Virus record (IMG/VR): IMGVR_UViG_2778261453_000020
Length of the DNA: 10,710 nucleotides
From: a virus
Lineage: Duplodnaviria > Heunggongvirae > Uroviricota > Caudoviricetes
Direction: 5' to 3' (one strand)
The position numbers and the translations under genes were made by a program. Below the pieces are notes generated by a model. That model saw only the letters and a list, made by a program, of their open reading frames with translations, made no database searches and was not told the origin of the DNA. How positions within the stretch are numbered: the first letter of the stretch is position 1; every line of letters begins with the position of its first letter. Below are positions 2,229-10,710 of this stretch, one piece after another.

Positions 2229-3155
2229 TCAGTTTTTAGCCAGAGCGGTGACGGCCTTATCTAGTTTTTGCCATCCGCAATAGGTGATTGCCCTGAACGC
2301 TGTAGCGTCATTCTGGAAAAGACTAACCGCCCCTGATTCGGTTTTTATTACCGCCTCATCAGTTGGGGTTATAACCGTGGCTTCAACGTTAATAATCAGC
2401 TTTTGAGCGTCTATCAGCATCATGCGATCCGCCTGTTCGCTCACAATTACCGGTATTCTCAAAAGCTCTATCTGCCAGAACTCAGCATCAGTAAGCTGTA
2501 AGGCGTTTTCTACGGGCAAGATTAGCGACGACGTGGCGAGCGTGTTACCGTTCGCTATGTGTTTTTTGAAAAGCTCTATAAAGTTTTCTGCTTCATCTGC
2601 ACCGTTAAGCACGCCTTCAGGTGACACGCCTTCTTCCTCCTGGTCACTGGAAAGAAATTTTTTATTAATTTCTTTCACCGATTCCGATGTGATCAAGTCT
2701 CTGATAGCTGAATTTGTACCAGGGGTGCTAAATTTGATTAGCTCGTTATTCAGCATCACAATAGCGCCGAGTTTGCACAGTTTTAGCGCACTTTCGTTAA
2801 CTTCTCCCTCTTTGACAGGGATTTCTTCGGCTTCTTTAAGCCATTTACTACCCTTGCCTGATATTGACTGCAATTTTGCGCCAAACGGAAGATTTAGCGC
2901 GCTGCTGATTAGCTTGCCTGGTACAGACTGCGAAAAAATATACTCGCCAAGCTCTCTTACTATCGGCTCTGCCACCAGCGACGGCATATTATCCGTAGTC
3001 ATTCCGGCAACAATGGATTTTTCAAGAAATTTCGATACTGCCGGATCATTTTTTTTCGTCATTTCAATTGCGTCTGCATGGCTGAATTTACACGATGTAA
3101 GCACGCTGGCGGCGCGAACTGCCGACACGCCTTTCATGTTTTTAGAAATCATCAT
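2229..3155 (-). CDS. HK97-fold major capsid protein-like (Phage_capsid family), 308 aa
   Basis: The central region KLGAIVMLNNELIKFS...SAIRDLITSESVKEINKKFLSSDQEEEGVSPEGVL and the following ...SSLILPVENALQL...IPVIVS... follow the residue pattern I recall for HK97 gp5-type capsid proteins (K.hA..h.....hL.GDG.....EGL, then ...GIVLNP...). Its ATG overlaps the stop of the preceding small ORF. Confidence 0.5.
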   Translation of the reverse strand: MMISKNMKGVSAVRAASVLTSCKFSHADAIEMTKKNDPAVSKFLEKSIVAGMTTDNMPSLVAEPIVRELGEYIFSQSVPGKLISSALNLPFGAKLQSISGKGSKWLKEAEEIPVKEGEVNESALKLCKLGAIVMLNNELIKFSTPGTNSAIRDLITSESVKEINKKFLSSDQEEEGVSPEGVLNGADEAENFIELFKKHIANGNTLATSSLILPVENALQLTDAEFWQIELLRIPVIVSEQADRMMLIDAQKLIINVEATVITPTDEAVIKTESGAVSLFQNDATAFRAITYCGWQKLDKAVTALAKN

Positions 3156-3314: not shown

Positions 3315-3803
3315 TCAGTGTTTTAAGCCTGTTGGTGGCTTAGGGATGGGGAACCGATTTGAGGAGACATTAGCGGCATTGAGTTTTTTAACCTCTTTTT
3401 TCCCAATGCTGCCGATCTTGCGGTGGGTGAACTGGGCCAGCTTAAACGCGGCATCTAAAGCCAGTTTTGGATCTGTGTCTATGTTGTCAGCCAGTATCCT
3501 GCCCATAGCTTTGATAGGGTCGGGCAAGCCGTTGTCCATCCGTTCTATGGTGCTGATTGATGCCCGTTCCGGTGTAACTTTTTCGGTAACTTTCTTTGTA
3601 ACTTTTTTCGGTTTTGTAACCTGAAAAGTTACATCAGGAGTTACAGCCTTAAGATACTTTTTCACCTCAGGCTCGTTGGATAGCTGCCAGCCTTTAACCC
3701 TTGCGGTCTTTTCGCTGTATCCCGCATGTATAGCGGCTTCCGTGGGATTTGCGCCCCTTGATAACGCATCAGCAAACCGCTTTTTTTTGGTCGTTAATGC
3801 CAT
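3315..3803 (-). CDS. Terminase small subunit (TerS), 162 aa
   Basis: Track ORF 3315-3941, but the N-terminal 46 residues are low-complexity read-through. Start placed at MALTTKKKRFADALSRGANPTEAAIHAGYSEKTARVKGWQLSNEPEVKKYL, which matches the N-terminal helix-turn-helix pattern of TerS proteins (AGYS.KTA...G..LL..P.V..YL). GAGG lies 7 nt upstream of this ATG. Confidence 0.6.
   Translation of the reverse strand: MALTTKKKRFADALSRGANPTEAAIHAGYSEKTARVKGWQLSNEPEVKKYLKAVTPDVTFQVTKPKKVTKKVTEKVTPERASISTIERMDNGLPDPIKAMGRILADNIDTDPKLALDAAFKLAQFTHRKIGSIGKKEVKKLNAANVSSNRFPIPKPPTGLKH
3574..3644. repeat. Six GTAAC pentamers at 12-bp periodicity inside terS (four direct, two inverted)
   Basis: GTAAC at 3574, 3586, 3598 and 3616, then GTTAC at 3628 and 3640. 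On the coding strand this spans the KVT-rich linker ...VTKPKKVTKKVTEKVTPE of TerS. Confidence 0.55.
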
Positions 3804-3930
3804 GCAAAAACCTCGTTTTGAGGGGGTGTAACTTTTCGTGTAACTTTTTTGAAAAGCAAAATTTTCTACGAATGAGACGGGGGGCGGTGTCCAGGGCGAT
3901 CGCCTTTCCGGCCGGAACACTCCCCCCCTG
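3804..3930 (-). promoter_or_regulatory. Candidate packaging site (cos/pac-like): GC-rich dyad plus two GTAAC repeats immediately upstream of terS
   Basis: 3877-3929 is an extended imperfect palindrome (ACGGGGGGCGGTGT ... ACACTCCCCCCC) enclosing the perfect palindromes GGCGATCGCC (3895-3904) and CCGGCCGG (3908-3915). Two further GTAAC copies sit 12 bp apart at 3828 and 3840, between the dyad and the terS ATG. The functional assignment is inference. Confidence 0.3.
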
Positions 3931-4092
3931 TCATTGCTCACCGAGTAACGAGATCAGGCCTTCAACTTCATCGCTCAGCTTGTTTATTCGTGTCTCAAGC
4001 TCTGCGATCTTTTCCATTAATGGCGCTATCGTGTCTCTTGTTTCCTCGCCAATGGCTTTAATGATGCTTGCCTCGCGTTCTGTGATAGCCAT
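3931..4092 (-). CDS. Small predicted helical protein, 53 aa
   Basis: Hand translation MAITEREASIIKAIGEETRDTIAPLMEKIAELETRINKLSDEVEGLISLLGEQ*. AGGA lies 6 nt upstream of the ATG, and the ATG is 2 nt after the stop of the upstream ORF. Not in the supplied track. Confidence 0.4.
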   Translation of the reverse strand: MAITEREASIIKAIGEETRDTIAPLMEKIAELETRINKLSDEVEGLISLLGEQ

Positions 4093-4094
4093 TG

Positions 4095-4289
4095 TTATTC
4101 CTCACCCGTTGCAATGCCCAGGCGTTCGCGTAACAGCACGCGAGCAAGATGGCCTACTGTTGGCGTGGCGGCTCTGCCGTATATACCAGCTTCATTCATC
4201 CGGCGAATAACATCGAATTGAAGTTTTTTAAGCTCGTTTAGGATCTCGTGATCAATCATCACGGTAGCGCTTTGCTTTATCTGTTCCAC
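4095..4289 (-). CDS. Small hypothetical protein (64 aa), possible ribbon-helix-helix-like regulator
   Basis: GTG start with AGGAGG 7 nt upstream. Sequence ...SATVMIDHEILNELKKLQFDVIRRMNEAG...TVGHLARVLLRERLG reads as beta-strand plus two helices; the fold assignment is a guess. Confidence 0.45.
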   Translation of the reverse strand: MEQIKQSATVMIDHEILNELKKLQFDVIRRMNEAGIYGRAATPTVGHLARVLLRERLGIATGEE

Positions 4290-4376
4290 TTTATGACCTC
4301 CTGATATTTATCATTACATAATCGATATTTTCGATAGATATTCATCAATTAACCATATTATCAGATATGTAAGAAC

Positions 4377-4400
4377 AAAAAAAAGCCGGAGCGATCCGGC
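4377..4400 (-). terminator. Rho-independent terminator after ssb
   Basis: Minus strand reads GCCGGA-TCGC-TCCGGC followed by U8, 17 nt after the ssb stop. Confidence 0.7.
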
Positions 4401-4416
4401 TTCTGTTACTCGTTGC

Positions 4417-4827
4417 TTAAAACGGAATATCATCACCGTAGGGGTCATCGCCTCCCGCTGGTGGCTGATTACCCTGTGTGCCTGTGGTTTTGCGTCTGCT
4501 CCCGCCAGGACACGCCGTCTTCGCACTGATTACGCTGTCTGCGATAACCTGCCAGCCCTGCCGTGTTTCCCCGTTCTGTTCGGTCCACTGGCTGACCTGC
4601 ATCGTGCCGGATACGCTGGCAACGTCACCCTTTTGATGTTTAGCCAGGTAGTCGGCCTGCTTACCAAATGCGATGACCGATAGCCATAACGTCGCCTGTC
4701 CATCCTGTGCCTGGCTGCATGGCAACGATACCGCCATACGCGCCAGCGTCATTGGTGTACCCTTGCTGGTCTGTTTTACCTGCGGGTCAGCCACCAGCCG
4801 TCCGTAAGCCGCTATCTGTGCTGTCAT
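4417..4827 (-). CDS. ssb: Single-stranded DNA-binding protein (SSB-like), 136 aa
   Basis: OB-fold-like N-terminus (...LWLSVIAFGKQADYLAKHQKGDVASVSGTMQVSQWTEQNGETRQGW...), Gly/Pro-rich linker and the acidic tail ...GDDPYGDDIPF characteristic of bacterial and phage SSBs. Its ATG overlaps the upstream stop as ATGA. Confidence 0.65.
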   Translation of the reverse strand: MTAQIAAYGRLVADPQVKQTSKGTPMTLARMAVSLPCSQAQDGQATLWLSVIAFGKQADYLAKHQKGDVASVSGTMQVSQWTEQNGETRQGWQVIADSVISAKTACPGGSRRKTTGTQGNQPPAGGDDPYGDDIPF

Positions 4828-5075
4828 GCTGTCTGCTCTCCGGTTTTAACGTTGATGGTTGTTACCTGTTCCGCTTCGGCAATCTCCCGTTCTGTCAGCG
4901 TGGCAAAGTTTGCCGCCGCCGTTGTCATGAATGCGCTTATCAGTTCAGGATGTGTTTTCGCGTATCCTTCCCCGGCGTGGCGGTCTATCGTTCTGATTGC
5001 CACCTTTAAGGCGTGCTCTGTCATGTCTAATGCGCGATATTTTGGCGCTGTCTTATCTCTGGTTTTTCTGTTCAT
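4824..5075 (-). CDS. Hypothetical protein, 83 aa (alternative start at 5024 gives 66 aa)
   Basis: Track ORF with GGGAG 9 nt upstream of the ATG at 5075; its stop overlaps the ssb start. No recognisable family. Confidence 0.4.
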   Translation of the reverse strand: MNRKTRDKTAPKYRALDMTEHALKVAIRTIDRHAGEGYAKTHPELISAFMTTAAANFATLTEREIAEAEQVTTINVKTGEQTA

Positions 5076-5288
5076 TCCCCACTACTCCCCACTTTTGTTC
5101 CCCACTTTTTAAATTCCCCACTTGCTCCCCACGTCGTTTTTTTGGTGAATCTAATGCTTTGTTTTTCATTGCGTTTTTTACTCCCCACTTTTTTGGATGT
5201 ATACAGGTGGGAAAGTGGGGAATTATGTTTTTATTTTGTTAAATTCCCCACTATCCCCACTTTTATTACCCACTTTTTACAGTGGGTA
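5076..5288. repeat. Iteron-like array of octamer TCCCCACT (about 9 direct and 2-3 inverted copies); candidate replication origin
   Basis: Direct copies at 5076, 5086, 5099, 5115, 5126 (variant TCCCCACG), 5182, 5245, 5255 and 5267 (variant TACCCACT). Inverted AGTGGGGA at 5215, with degenerate inverted copies at 5205 and 5281. Spacings of 10-13 bp. An AT-rich tract at 5134-5180 separates two clusters. Confidence 0.6.
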
Positions 5289-6683
5289 AACATCATCCCC
5301 ATCGACACAAATCACGCCGTCTTTTTCCAGCTTGGACAGCCAGCGCCGGAAGTGCTTCATCTCATATCCCAGCTTTTTCATATCGTCGCGGAGAAGGGCG
5401 ATAGTGCATGGTTCTTTGTGTGCCGTCCGCGTTCTGATGCACTGCCATAGCGCCGCGTGATTCTCCGATTTGTTGCCTGCTTCCTCGATGCGCTCCAGTT
5501 CAGCAGGGGCGCGGGGAACGTCAATCACCACCATGGACACAATCTCTTCGCCATCTGTATCGGTGAACACCTCCACGCTTTTAAGGTCGTATGCACTTTC
5601 TTTTGGCTCCTCTGCGTCCTTCATCTTCGTGCATGCCGCCACCAGTGCTGTAACGTCTGAATTTTCCCGACTGATTCGGAACTCAGCATCAAGCGCCGCA
5701 CGGAATGCGCTGGAACCGCGCGCCCCTTTCGTCTCATCCTTGCCGGAATGGTGAACCACCAGCACGGTAGCCCCTGTTGCCTGCTTTATCGCGTCACATC
5801 CCTGGATAAATGCGCCCATGTCGCGGGAGTCATTTTCATCATGACCGCCAAAGCAACGGGCCAGCGTATCAATGACGATCATCCGCACCCGTTCGCCCGT
5901 TGTGCTCTGCACAAATCCGGCAGTCCTTATTACCTGTTCCACATAGTCCGGCGATGCGGGGAATACTGGCGAATTGACGATACACAAATCAGTAACCTCC
6001 TTACCGTGGGTTATTTCCCATGCCTTAACGCGGCGTTTTACGCCCATGCTGCCTTCACCAGCAACATAGATAACCGCGCCTTTACACACCCTTCGGCCTC
6101 CCCATTTCATGCCAGTAGCAACATGACACGCCCACGAAATGGCGAGGAACGATTTATAAGAACCGCTGGCTCCGTAGGTGCTGCATAATGACTCAGCCGG
6201 AATAAGCCCCTTAATTACGTAGCTTTGCTGCGCGTCGAATCCCTCAGACCCCCATGAGATGGGAAGTGTGATTTTTCGCTTTCCGCCATTCATGACCAGG
6301 CTTTCCCCACGTTCCCAGGTTTCTTTAAGCCGCGGTAGTTGCTCGCTCCAGTCCTCCAGCAATTCGAAATTTTCAGAAAGTAGCCGCGCCTCCTGGACTC
6401 CGGCGATCGCCAGTTTTGTGGCAATGGTCAGCATCTGCATATCGTCCAGATTTCCGGCACGTATGACCTTTGTCCTGTATCGTCCTTCATCAACAATCTG
6501 TAAGTTGTCCAGTTCGTTTAACTGATAACGGCCCAGGTAAACCGGAGGGATGGGATCGCCCGCTTTTTTGGCCTGCGCAATCATGTAATGTTCTGCAAAG
6601 GAGTGAGCATCATTCCCCGCGAAAATAATTGCTTCGGTGTGTTTGTCTTTCGGTAATAGTTTTACGTTCGGTGCCAGTTTCAT
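5277..6683 (-). CDS. RepA-like replicative helicase / replication initiator (RecA-fold ATPase), 468 aa
   Basis: P-loop-like YGASGSYKS, Walker-B-like RMIVIDTL, and ATVLVVHHSGKD, which is the HHxGK motif I associate with RepA/DnaB-like phage and plasmid helicases. The C-terminal approx. 70 aa look like a possible DNA-binding domain, and the gene ends inside the iteron array. Confidence 0.6.
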   Translation of the reverse strand: MKLAPNVKLLPKDKHTEAIIFAGNDAHSFAEHYMIAQAKKAGDPIPPVYLGRYQLNELDNLQIVDEGRYRTKVIRAGNLDDMQMLTIATKLAIAGVQEARLLSENFELLEDWSEQLPRLKETWERGESLVMNGGKRKITLPISWGSEGFDAQQSYVIKGLIPAESLCSTYGASGSYKSFLAISWACHVATGMKWGGRRVCKGAVIYVAGEGSMGVKRRVKAWEITHGKEVTDLCIVNSPVFPASPDYVEQVIRTAGFVQSTTGERVRMIVIDTLARCFGGHDENDSRDMGAFIQGCDAIKQATGATVLVVHHSGKDETKGARGSSAFRAALDAEFRISRENSDVTALVAACTKMKDAEEPKESAYDLKSVEVFTDTDGEEIVSMVVIDVPRAPAELERIEEAGNKSENHAALWQCIRTRTAHKEPCTIALLRDDMKKLGYEMKHFRRWLSKLEKDGVICVDGDDVYPL

Positions 6684-6979
6684 TTTTTACCCCTGAATAC
6701 ATTCAACATCTTTCTTATTTCCTGAATATTGGCGCGTGCTTTCTCCCTGCTGGTGGGCTTACTGCGTTGCGCTGCCTGCACCAATGTAAAATCACGGGCG
6801 AACTGATAAACAGGCATCACGCAATCATATTCGTAGCCTTCACGACGGTAGGTTACGCGCCGTTCCTCCACGCCCTTAATCATTACCGTGCCGCCGTACT
6901 GGTCGCGGTAAATATCACCGCGCATGAATTTAGTGCGAGTTTTGCCACTGGCAGTTAAGCCAGAATATCTAAGTTTCAT
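6680..6979 (-). CDS. Hypothetical protein, 99 aa
   Basis: Track ORF with GGAG 9 nt upstream of the ATG; its stop overlaps the helicase ATG as ATGA. Confidence 0.45.
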   Translation of the reverse strand: MKLRYSGLTASGKTRTKFMRGDIYRDQYGGTVMIKGVEERRVTYRREGYEYDCVMPVYQFARDFTLVQAAQRSKPTSREKARANIQEIRKMLNVFRGKK

Positions 6980-7598: not shown

Positions 7599-7762
7599 GT
7601 GAAAGGCTCCCAGATGAATTATAAGGAGTCTCGCTACTACGCTGCTAAACGGGGTGGCGAGACGTAACAGGGTTAGCAGACTGGTCATCTGGAAACCAGC
7701 GAGCGCAAAGGCTCCCCCGTTACGCCCCGCCATAATGCGGGTATGGGTAGGTTTACGGACAC

Positions 7763-7884
7763 AAAAAAACCGCTTATCGGATGTGGGCGGCTGTCCGCCA
7801 GATGTATTCAGGCTGCTAAACCCGGTCGCCATGTGGGCGACGGGGGAAGCATACAGCCCCGTGATAATTTTTTGCAAGCGGTTT
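7763..7884 (-). ncRNA. Candidate structured RNA (multi-stem, cloverleaf-like) ending in a U7 tract, between the two Icd-like genes
   Basis: On the minus strand, AAAAACCGCUU (7884-7874) can pair with AAGCGGUUUUU (7775-7765). This encloses hairpins GGGG/CCCC, GUCGCC-CACAU-GGCGAC and GGCGG-ACAG-CCGCC. Folds were judged by eye only. Confidence 0.25.
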
Positions 7885-8082: not shown

Positions 8083-8170
8083 AACGGCTCCTAGTTTACG
8101 TTGTTGGTTAGACGCCCCGTATGTGTTCCCAGCACTGCGGGGCGTTGATTTTTGTGTAATGGCAAGTACA

Positions 8171-8765: not shown

Positions 8766-8972
8766 TTAAGCAGCCGTTCCGCGTGCTTCCTGTTCGCGTT
8801 CTTTCTGCCAGGCCAACACATCATCCTCATACCATCCGCGACGGCGTAAACCAACGCGAAAACCCTGCGGAAATTCTCCGGCGTTGATCATGCTTTGCAG
8901 CGTGCTGTCTGCCTTGATGTGGATAATTTTTTTTACTTCCTGGCGAAAGATAATTTTTCTGATTGCTTCCAT
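8766..8972 (-). CDS. alpA: AlpA-family (phage Vis/AlpA-type) DNA-binding regulator, 68 aa
   Basis: ...KIIHIKADSTLQSMINAGEFPQGFRVGLRRRGWYEDDVLAWQKERE... matches the AlpA helix-turn-helix pattern. It lies next to a P4-type integrase, as is usual for such islands. Confidence 0.7.
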   Translation of the reverse strand: MEAIRKIIFRQEVKKIIHIKADSTLQSMINAGEFPQGFRVGLRRRGWYEDDVLAWQKEREQEARGTAA

Positions 8973-9105
8973 CGTGATTTACCTTGTGAATCCGGTGTAT
9001 TCCGGTGACAAATACGGTAAATCATCGGATATGGGTAAAAACAGTTCCCACCGTTTTTAAACGGTATACACCGTTTTTTATATTGATGATTTGAAATGGA
9101 ATTAT

Positions 9106-9129
9106 AAAAAAAGCGGCATTTCTGCCGCT
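9106..9129 (-). terminator. Rho-independent terminator after the integrase operon
   Basis: Minus strand reads GCGGCA-GAAA-UGCCGC followed by U7, 11 nt after the stop of ORF 9140-9391. Confidence 0.65.
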
Positions 9130-9468: not shown

Positions 9469-10710
9469 CTACACGGCTCGGATACCCCTTTTACCACTGG
9501 CGAGGGTTACGCCCGTCGCCGCAGCCTCGACAAATTCGCCCCACCAGCGCATCAGCACGATGCGTTTTTCTATGTAGTTGCTCCGGTTGTATGCCCGTCT
9601 AACTTCGTTGGTGTCGACGTGGGCAAGTGCCGCCTCTATTACGTCCGGCTCGAATCCTTCCTCGTTCGCTGCTGTGCTGAATATGGCGCGTAATCCATGA
9701 GACACCAGCACGCCAGCAAATCCCATACGCCGCAATGCTGCGTTAGCTGTCTGGCTGTTCATCGGCTGCTGTGGGTCTTTCAGGCTTGGGAAAACGTAAT
9801 TGCGGTGGTGGCTGATTGGTTTCATGGCCTCCAGCACCGCCATAGCCTGACCGGAAAGCGGGATAACGTGATCCCTGCGCATCTTCATGCGTCCGGCAGG
9901 TATCGTCCATTGCTTCGCGTCCAGGTTGATTTCATCCCACCGCGTTGATGACGCTTCGGCGGGACGGGTTACGGTCAGTAACTGCCATTCAATCAGTAAT
10001 CTGGTCTGCCGTTCTGTTGCCGATACTGATAAAGCCTGCATAAGCTCCGGCAGCTGTTCGGGGCGGATTGTTGGCATATGTTTTTTTACAGGTGAGGGAA
10101 ACGCCTTACGCACATTCATAGCCGGATTGGCATCAATCAGCCCACTGTTGGCGGCGTAATCCATTACCTCATTAACGCGCTGTAAAACCCGCTTGAGTGT
10201 TTCCAGGTTGCCGCGCTCCTTGATGGGTGTAAGCACCTCAACGAATCTTCGGGCGGTGAGGGTATCTATTGGCGTGTTGCCGATGAACGGGAATACATAT
10301 TTATCCAGCGAACGCCAGATGTCTTTAATCGTGTTGGGGGCCAGATTCTGGCTGATTTTCACCTGGTACCATGCCGCCGCCACATTTTCGAACGTGTTCC
10401 CTTGTCTTCGGGCCTCTGTCTCTCTTTTTTGCCTCTCGTGGTCCTGCGGGTCAGTTCCGGCACGAATTAACGCCCTGTACTCGCTACGGCGTTTTCTGGC
10501 ATCAGCCAGGGAAACATCTTCAAGCGATCCAAAACTCAGCAATATTCTTTTTTTGTCCGATGGTCGGTAGTAGGAAAATCTCCAGAGTTTTGATCCAGAC
10601 GGTTTGACCAGGAGAAAAAGCCCTCCGCCGTCCTGCAGGGTGTACTCCTTTTGCGCTGGTCTGGCTGCTTTGATCTGCACTGTGGTTAATGGGTGTGTTT
10701 TTCTCGCCAT
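9469..10710 (-). CDS. P4-type tyrosine integrase, 413 aa
   Basis: N-terminal ...GLFLLVKPSGSKLWRFSYYRP... arm-binding-like domain. Catalytic-core motifs: R in ...TVTRPAEAS..., HGLRAIF (H-x-x-R), and ...ALAHVDTNEVRRAYNRSNYIEKR with the likely catalytic Tyr. The ATG is the final base of the window, so the promoter and attachment site are outside it. Confidence 0.85.
   Translation of the reverse strand: MARKTHPLTTVQIKAARPAQKEYTLQDGGGLFLLVKPSGSKLWRFSYYRPSDKKRILLSFGSLEDVSLADARKRRSEYRALIRAGTDPQDHERQKRETEARRQGNTFENVAAAWYQVKISQNLAPNTIKDIWRSLDKYVFPFIGNTPIDTLTARRFVEVLTPIKERGNLETLKRVLQRVNEVMDYAANSGLIDANPAMNVRKAFPSPVKKHMPTIRPEQLPELMQALSVSATERQTRLLIEWQLLTVTRPAEASSTRWDEINLDAKQWTIPAGRMKMRRDHVIPLSGQAMAVLEAMKPISHHRNYVFPSLKDPQQPMNSQTANAALRRMGFAGVLVSHGLRAIFSTAANEEGFEPDVIEAALAHVDTNEVRRAYNRSNYIEKRIVLMRWWGEFVEAAATGVTLASGKRGIRAV

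Follow-up and report, generated by a model that had tools for sequence, protein, structure and literature searches.

A terminator and a candidate weak promoter at the head of the late unit of an AlpA-type phage-inducible chromosomal island of Escherichia coli

The 10,710-nucleotide stretch of DNA analysed here (the window; IMG/VR virus record IMGVR_UViG_2778261453_000020) carries a phage-inducible chromosomal island (PICI) of the AlpA type, a small phage satellite of Escherichia coli. The genes of interest all lie on the minus strand, and the island is read from position 10710 downwards. Our subject is the intergenic segment at 4290-4376, immediately ahead of the small gene orf64 with which the late block opens. 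We consider that this segment may be a terminator-promoter junction at which the late (packaging) unit of the island starts from a weak sigma70 promoter, with a probability of about one half. A preliminary description of the segment had proposed an AT-rich stretch that follows the ssb terminator and precedes both the packaging/capsid genes and a GTG-start open reading frame (ORF) with a strong ribosome-binding site (RBS), and these elements are borne out: the terminator is present, the G+C content is 25.3% as compared with 48.9% for the whole window, AGGAGG is suitably placed ahead of the GTG, homologues confirm the ORF, and terS-like and HK97-type capsid-like genes lie downstream. The low G+C content places the segment within the lowest 0.24% of all 87-nucleotide segments of the window, the window-wide minimum starting at 4298.

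The same arrangement recurs across five diverged lineages, with a terminator-like hairpin, called by a terminator scan in four of the five, an AT-rich spacer of 85-130 nucleotides that contains a sigma70-like core, and an orf64-family gene as the first late gene. The orf64 family is small; a word-indexed search recovers close E. coli relatives only, an exhaustive search finds three full-length small homologues among six hits, and a profile search adds one more. These homologues, at 36-48% identity and with an alignable N-terminus, mark orf64 as a real ORF. The four remote members lie on PICI-like contigs (L014, L016, L017 and L018), where each is the first gene after rep and the iterons and is preceded by an AT-rich spacer of ~85-130 nucleotides. 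The genes that follow them vary, being portal, capsid-like, or that of a 798-aa protein, and 53-aa genes come after the orf64 homologue in L014 and L017.

For closer comparison the region was aligned with 13 relatives (three E. coli chromosomes and 10 IMG/VR contigs, with orf64 89-98% identical), to which E. coli KY171 was added as a 14th. A putative -35 and -10 pair separated by 17 nucleotides is found in E. coli alleles and remote lineages alike: TTGATT and AATACT in O157 and L004 (and, in the alignment, in KY171), TTAATT and AATACT in CD45 and L011, TTGATA and AATACT in L018, TTGATC and AACACT in L014 and L016, and TTGTTG and AACAAT in L017. The family form of the core is TTGATN, 17 nucleotides, AAYAMT. 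In a scan with a sigma70 matrix this arrangement ranks first in O157, L004, L018, L014 and L017 and second in L016, CD45 and L011; it sits in aligned columns, and in every lineage it ends 28-35 nucleotides ahead of the start codon. The relatives' pair of TTGATT or TTGATA with AATACT scores 8-9/12, the -35 hexamer contributing 4-5/6 in its TTGATT, TTGATA and TTGATC forms, and a separate promoter scan with a threshold of 9/12 itself reports TTGATA-17-AATACT in L018 at 9/12. Reading of the sequences also places a purine 7 nucleotides past the -10 in each lineage, and an A-tract immediately upstream of the -35 in most E. coli alleles.

The window allele is a poor example of this family. Because the G of its putative -35 and the final T of its putative -10 have been lost, low unaided transcription is expected, and the preliminary description was right that the window copy has no clear sigma70 -35 element: no minus-strand sigma70-like site in the region reaches 9/12 in the promoter scan, and the window candidate cannot be told from shuffled sequence by its score (p = 0.93). 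These results weigh against a promoter at this place, and there are other grounds for caution. The matrix, made from consensus frequencies of the literature, is a rough one; the scores of single relatives are only marginally unusual for AT-rich DNA (p = 0.03-0.27 in a positional range and 0.11-0.93 anywhere); and the positional range was set with the data already in view, among lineages that share ancestry and are not independent. Moreover, the two most critical hexamer positions are changed in the window allele and the spacer block is invariant, a pattern that also fits a factor-binding site, and we found no transcript data for the region in the literature searched. Since the single scores are marginal, the support for the promoter lies in its recurrence at one place and not in any individual score. 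A plus-strand candidate at 4293-4322 (ATGACC-18-CATAAT, pointing to ssb) needs a window-specific GGTCAT where the relatives have GGAAAC, and is probably due to chance.

Upstream lies the terminator. The hairpin with its T8 at 4404-4373 was scored as terminator-like with 10 pairs in a terminator scan, its predicted fold has an energy of -16.7 kcal/mol (z = -3.9 against shuffles), and the GC-rich stem-loop runs directly into a U-tract, as in Rho-independent terminators. The late block is present in 220 of 5,426 complete E. coli genomes, and in these 220 the similarity to the window starts at the hairpin (query position 10); this boundary is the same with ssb or another gene upstream, and with a RepA-type or a primase-type replicon. 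In the window, the origin and the late block are separated by a variable accessory slot, of which ssb is the last gene and which in relatives holds other genes or none, and the accessory hot spot that adjoins the PICI replication gene (PMC11364771) is the counterpart of this slot upstream of the terminator. Terminator-like hairpins, each with its own stem sequence, are called in L002, L014, L016 and L018, and upstream of the orf64 homologue in L017 there is only a weak GGGA/TCCC stem with T9, for which the scan makes no call; the position of the terminator is thus kept in four of the five lineages (three of the four remote ones) and its sequence is not. This maintenance of structure without sequence argues that insulation of the late unit from upstream transcription matters, and we infer that insulation is what the terminator, whose presence and position are plain, provides.

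Taken together, the arrangement is best read as a working promoter that is weak in this allele, the expression of which would be raised by replication-driven copy number or by a factor. Transcription from the replication and accessory genes would stop at the terminator at 4404-4373; sigma70 RNA polymerase would then start at the weak promoter TTAATT/AATATC, or at AAATAT with a 16-nucleotide spacer; and the transcript, predicted to begin near 4318-4316, would have a leader of ~28 nucleotides carrying AGGAGG, followed by the orf64 GTG. After induction a boost in expression would probably be needed, whether from copy-number amplification by the island replicon or from a further regulator.

Other conserved features lie within and around this putative core. 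The AGGAG of the Shine-Dalgarno sequence is kept in all of the E. coli-type alleles compared, and not in the remote L018. The CATATCT block upstream of the putative -35 is possibly an UP-like or factor-binding site, and CATAATCTG, which is similar to it, is found at a comparable distance in L014. The 14-nucleotide invariant run ATCTATCGAAAATA is by our own estimate not significant by itself at 20% divergence. We found no leader RNA structure (z = 0.14) and no Rfam match in the region 4290-4376; a search of metagenome contigs with the 14-mer ATCTATCGAAAATA returned 120 random hits and no relative. Attempts to find more diverged relatives in genome contigs, in metagenome contigs by protein profile and in viral contigs by way of the remote proteins were likewise unsuccessful.

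The spacer is also strongly diverged. Its identity to the closest relatives is 80-84%, as against up to 99% for orf64, 97-99% for orf53, 98-99% for the cos-like site and 95-96% for terS, such that identity changes sharply at the orf64 start, from ~80% to up to 99%; none of the 5,426 complete E. coli genomes is more than 82% identical across the 115-nucleotide region 4290-4404. The window spacer is a private allele, and the sharp change suggests, and does not prove, that it was swapped in as a separate unit from an unsampled allele at the module junction, and is not a product of decay.

The preliminary description had drawn attention to TCGATA repeats and to ATCGAT within this spacer. Both TCGATA copies are there, as is the ATCGAT palindrome, but they do not form a conserved element. 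The spaced pair TCGATA-N3-TCGATA would be expected 0.04 times per window, for a pattern that was picked after being seen. At the ATCGAT site all 14 relatives compared have ACTGAT or ACTGGT, a reading given by 12 E. coli/IMG-VR relatives, KY171 and the remote locus L018; the TCGATA copy at 4331-4336 is conserved, lying within the invariant ATCTATCGAAAATA, and that at 4322-4327 is found in the window sequence only. A role of the TCGATA/ATCGAT repeat as an operator was rejected on the ground that the second copy is unique to the window sequence. The CT-to-TC change that makes ATCGAT also removes the key final T of the -10, and by comparison of the alleles the repeat is a private dinucleotide change, a by-product of that change in the putative -10 with no role of its own.

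The preliminary description had favoured dependence on an activator. In a strict form of this reading, a helper or island protein made after induction would bind CATATCT (4369-4363) and/or ATCTATCGAAAATA (4339-4326) and recruit polymerase to an otherwise dead promoter. This is plausible, if on balance doubtful. The poor hexamers of the window, the conserved blocks outside them and the insulation of the region by a terminator in four of five lineages would all suit it, and there are precedents among satellite late operons, since Psid and PLL of P4 are controlled by Delta or Ogr and operon I of the pathogenicity islands of Staphylococcus aureus (SaPIs) by helper Ltr proteins. However, the P2/P4 Ogr/Delta dyad TGT-N12-ACA is absent from the region, its sole match in the window being at 8153-8170; there is no LexA box (CTGT-N8-ACAG) within 4290-4404 at one mismatch or fewer, and no match in the region to the sigma54 element TGGCAC-N5-TTGC (-24/-12) at two mismatches or fewer. 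Nor does either of the island's own candidates fit. AlpA as a late activator is not supported, the AAAACGGTG repeats of the alpA promoter being absent from the region, and Orf64 as a specific binder of the conserved blocks is weakened; neither shows the expected co-variation with the type of region, because the O157 island has another AlpA type (28% identity) with the same late region, and the orf64 proteins P0007 and P0010 are 86% identical behind differing regions (L016 versus L018). Some partial similarity to sites for FNR, IHF, Fur, CII and DnaA and to lambda operators was noted by eye alone; it is not conserved across alleles and was set aside.

The probable helpers speak against an activator as well. 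The segment at 3850-3928 holds a G/C-rich imperfect inverted repeat and is ~80% identical to the intergenic stretch between HNH and terS in lambdoid phages of the Stx-converting and related kinds, the gap in which HK97-like phages have cos, and on this resemblance it is probably a cos-site mimic. The match indicates that the likely helpers are lambdoid cos phages, and in lambdoid phages the late genes are controlled by Q antitermination at their own PR' and not by a diffusible activator of promoters. The region does not itself read as a mimic of lambdoid PR'/qut, its terminator lying upstream and not downstream, and no phage record resembles it, the only match being a 27-nucleotide stretch (E = 0.3). 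Finally, since the relatives have a recognisable -35 and -10, at 8-9/12, the promoter of the family need not depend on an activator.

Three further explanations can be set beside the weak sigma70 promoter. Orf64 could be a small DNA-binding autoregulator of the ribbon-helix-helix type that acts on TATC/GATA motifs such as TGATAAATATCA at 4313-4302, which is compatible with the weak promoter and which we hold to be unlikely: the gene is the first of the operon in every lineage, the product is predicted to have a strand-helix-helix layout with a disordered N-terminus, and most alleles retain the arms of the palindrome; on the other side, the L004 group has a mutation in one arm, the near-identical P0007 and P0010 stand behind differing upstream regions, and Orf64 has no Pfam, PDB or NCBIfam match, searches by structure and family giving weak TraM hits only. 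Less probable still is that there is no working promoter here, the late genes being reached by read-through or antitermination from an AlpA-driven early transcript, or the allele having decayed and left a silent late block. That the two most critical hexamer positions are hit in the window, in a spacer that is private and strongly diverged, speaks for such an account; yet the terminator is strong, with a GC stem and U8, and its maintenance in four of five lineages argues for insulation and not read-through, and the flanking late genes are intact (93-99% identical to relatives), and the abrupt switch from 80% to 99% where orf64 starts has the look of allele exchange and not of decay. It is very improbable that the AT-rich stretch acts as a DNA-unwinding element or as some other site for replication or packaging. 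It lies within ~100-250 nucleotides of the origin iterons in L014, L016, L017 and L018, but in the window the distance to the iterons (5063-5279) is ~700 nucleotides, with orf83, ssb and the terminator between; in E. coli relatives the region travels with the late block behind RepA-type and primase-type replicons alike, and the cos-like site is elsewhere, at 3850-3928.

A broader proposal is that terminator, AT-rich spacer and orf64 make up a late-switch module conserved among AlpA-type PICIs, in which an undescribed Orf64 family of DNA-binding proteins and fast-diverging promoter alleles would time the packaging genes. We offer this tentatively and think it improbable; if it were true, the alleles could be tuned to differing helpers or regulators. 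In three of the remote loci (L014 4936-4985, L016 4931-4980 and L017 2450-2492) we also observe a shared ATTGATC ... GTTGC-N5-GATCAAC, whose Dam GATC sites fall at the putative -35 and beside the -10 and which has TATCTA exactly 20 nucleotides past TTGC. Within each locus the GATCAACA core of this motif recurs in coding sequence only (L014 8767, L017 878), and it is absent from the window.

The features of the region and of the island are collected in Table 1. Identification of the island follows from the presence of int, alpA, DUF4222, a RepA-type helicase, GTGGGGA iterons, ssb and the terS/capsid block; like other Gram-negative AlpA-type PICIs it combines int and alpA with a replication gene beside which the iteron origin lies, runs in one direction over ~8-9 kb, and ends in a packaging late zone with a cos site. 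Its layout agrees with that of E. coli islands annotated at tRNA-Pro/yejO and cspD/clpS, and the counterparts of its terS-like gene in relatives are annotated as terminase small subunit. The host flank at 1-2228 is E. coli yejO broken by IS2 (98-99% identity); the island occupies tRNA-Pro/yejO, the same site as in strain CD45.

Table 1. Elements of the late-unit junction and of the island within the window.
Feature	Position	Strand	Description
AT-rich intergenic control region	4290-4376	-	87 nt, between terminator and orf64
Intrinsic terminator	4373-4404 (hairpin 4381-4404)	-	Stem GCCGGA/TCCGGC plus AGAA/UUUU, loop TCGC, then T8
CATATCT block	4363-4369	-	Upstream of putative -35; ATATCT invariant, first C is T in some relatives
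Putative -35, TTAATT	4347-4352	-	3/6, without the G
Invariant block ATCTATCGAAAATA	4326-4339	-	Invariant in all E. coli-type alleles; in putative spacer, overlaps first 4 nt of putative -10
Alternative -10, AAATAT	4325-4330	-	Keeps A2 and T6; spacer would be 16 nt
Putative -10, AATATC	4324-4329	-	3/6, without final T; at the family position
Two TCGATA copies	4322-4327 and 4331-4336	+	ATCGAT palindrome at 4321-4326
Palindrome TGATA-AA-TATCA (TGATAAATATCA)	4302-4313	-	Overlaps A4302, first RBS base; possible operator
Shine-Dalgarno sequence AGGAGG	4297-4302	-	7 nt ahead of GTG 4289
Tyrosine integrase gene	9469-10710	-	
AlpA-family gene	8766-8972	-	
C4 antisense RNA with its targets	7650-7854	-	71.6 bits, above gathering threshold (Rfam)
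DUF4222 gene	6680-6979	-	
RepA/AAA_25 helicase gene	5277-6683	-	
Origin iterons GTGGGGA	5063-5279	-	Two clusters around an AT-rich centre, directly after helicase gene
ssb	4417-4827	-	PF00436, E = 2.1e-16; orf83 and ssb between iterons and late block
orf64	4095-4289	-	64 aa, GTG start at 4289; small uncharacterised family; opens late block
orf53	3931-4092	-	Small helical protein; second late gene
cos-like site	3850-3928	-	G/C-rich, non-coding; between orf53 and terS-like gene
terS-like gene	3315-3803	-	Start taken as ATG at 3803; PF03592; phrog_641, E = 6.6e-43
orf53b	between terS-like and capsid-like genes	-	
HK97-type capsid-like gene	2229-3155	-	Last of island; PF05065; phrog_10 and phrog_617; TIGR01554

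Several observations on neighbouring parts of the island may be recorded here. In the early zone the C4 RNA region at 7650-7854 resembles an RNA immunity module of the P1/P4 type; the a1/b1 target and a match to an isrK-like RNA each score slightly under threshold. The region upstream of alpA (8975-9110, minus strand) contains AAAACGGTG repeats and an ACCGT palindrome that are possible AlpA sites. GTAAC-containing 12-nucleotide repeats occur in both orientations at 3825-3850, just upstream of the terS start, and at 3571-3648, inside terS, where they encode KKVT-KKVT-EKVT; the repeats are candidate TerS-binding (cosB-like) sites. The orf53 homologue at L003 3311-3472 (WP_097562041.1) carries the RefSeq name 'antitermination protein NusG' and its equal-length neighbours are named 'hypothetical'; the NusG name is probably an annotation artefact.

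The closest known systems are the Gram-negative AlpA-type PICIs such as EcCICFT073 (Fillol-Salom 2018, PMC6092414; 2019, PMC6739421), for which a four-zone model has been described (PMC10111431). The window island shares with the EcCICFT073 type a unidirectional order of int, alpA, rep with an iteron origin, and then the packaging and capsid-like genes; in both, a cos site lies in the late zone and a variable accessory slot adjoins the replication gene (PMC11364771). It differs in having a Terminase_2-type terS-like gene (with no PDB match) and not the solved RppC, and in its orf64/orf53 pair. In the literature searched on Gram-negative PICIs we found no mapped late-zone promoter or regulator, the promoters tested being those of alpA and int (PMC6092414, PMC11773190), and no description of the timing of the packaging genes.

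Among other satellites, P4 offers a parallel in Psid and PLL, which also lie ahead of capsid-related genes and have a poor -35, but the TGT-N12-ACA dyad found near -55 in P4 is absent here, and the likely helpers are lambdoid cos phages and not P2-like. The promoter of SaPI operon I is repressed by LexA and boosted by helper late activators; it resembles the present case as a separately controlled promoter that stands behind the replication module and opens the packaging operon of a satellite, and differs from it in that 4290-4404 holds no LexA box, in its host group and in its proteins. Although each hexamer of the window allele matches at only 3/6, which is unusually poor, the region has the make-up of an ordinary bacterial operon junction, with a Rho-independent terminator, an AT-rich spacer, a -35 and -10 at 17 nucleotides, a short leader and a strong Shine-Dalgarno sequence. 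We regard it as a routine operon boundary of modest follow-up value, the analysis of which places the start of a terminator-insulated late unit in a widespread type of E. coli island (220 of 5,426 complete genomes), removes the TCGATA repeat as a false lead, and identifies the few bases worth mutating.
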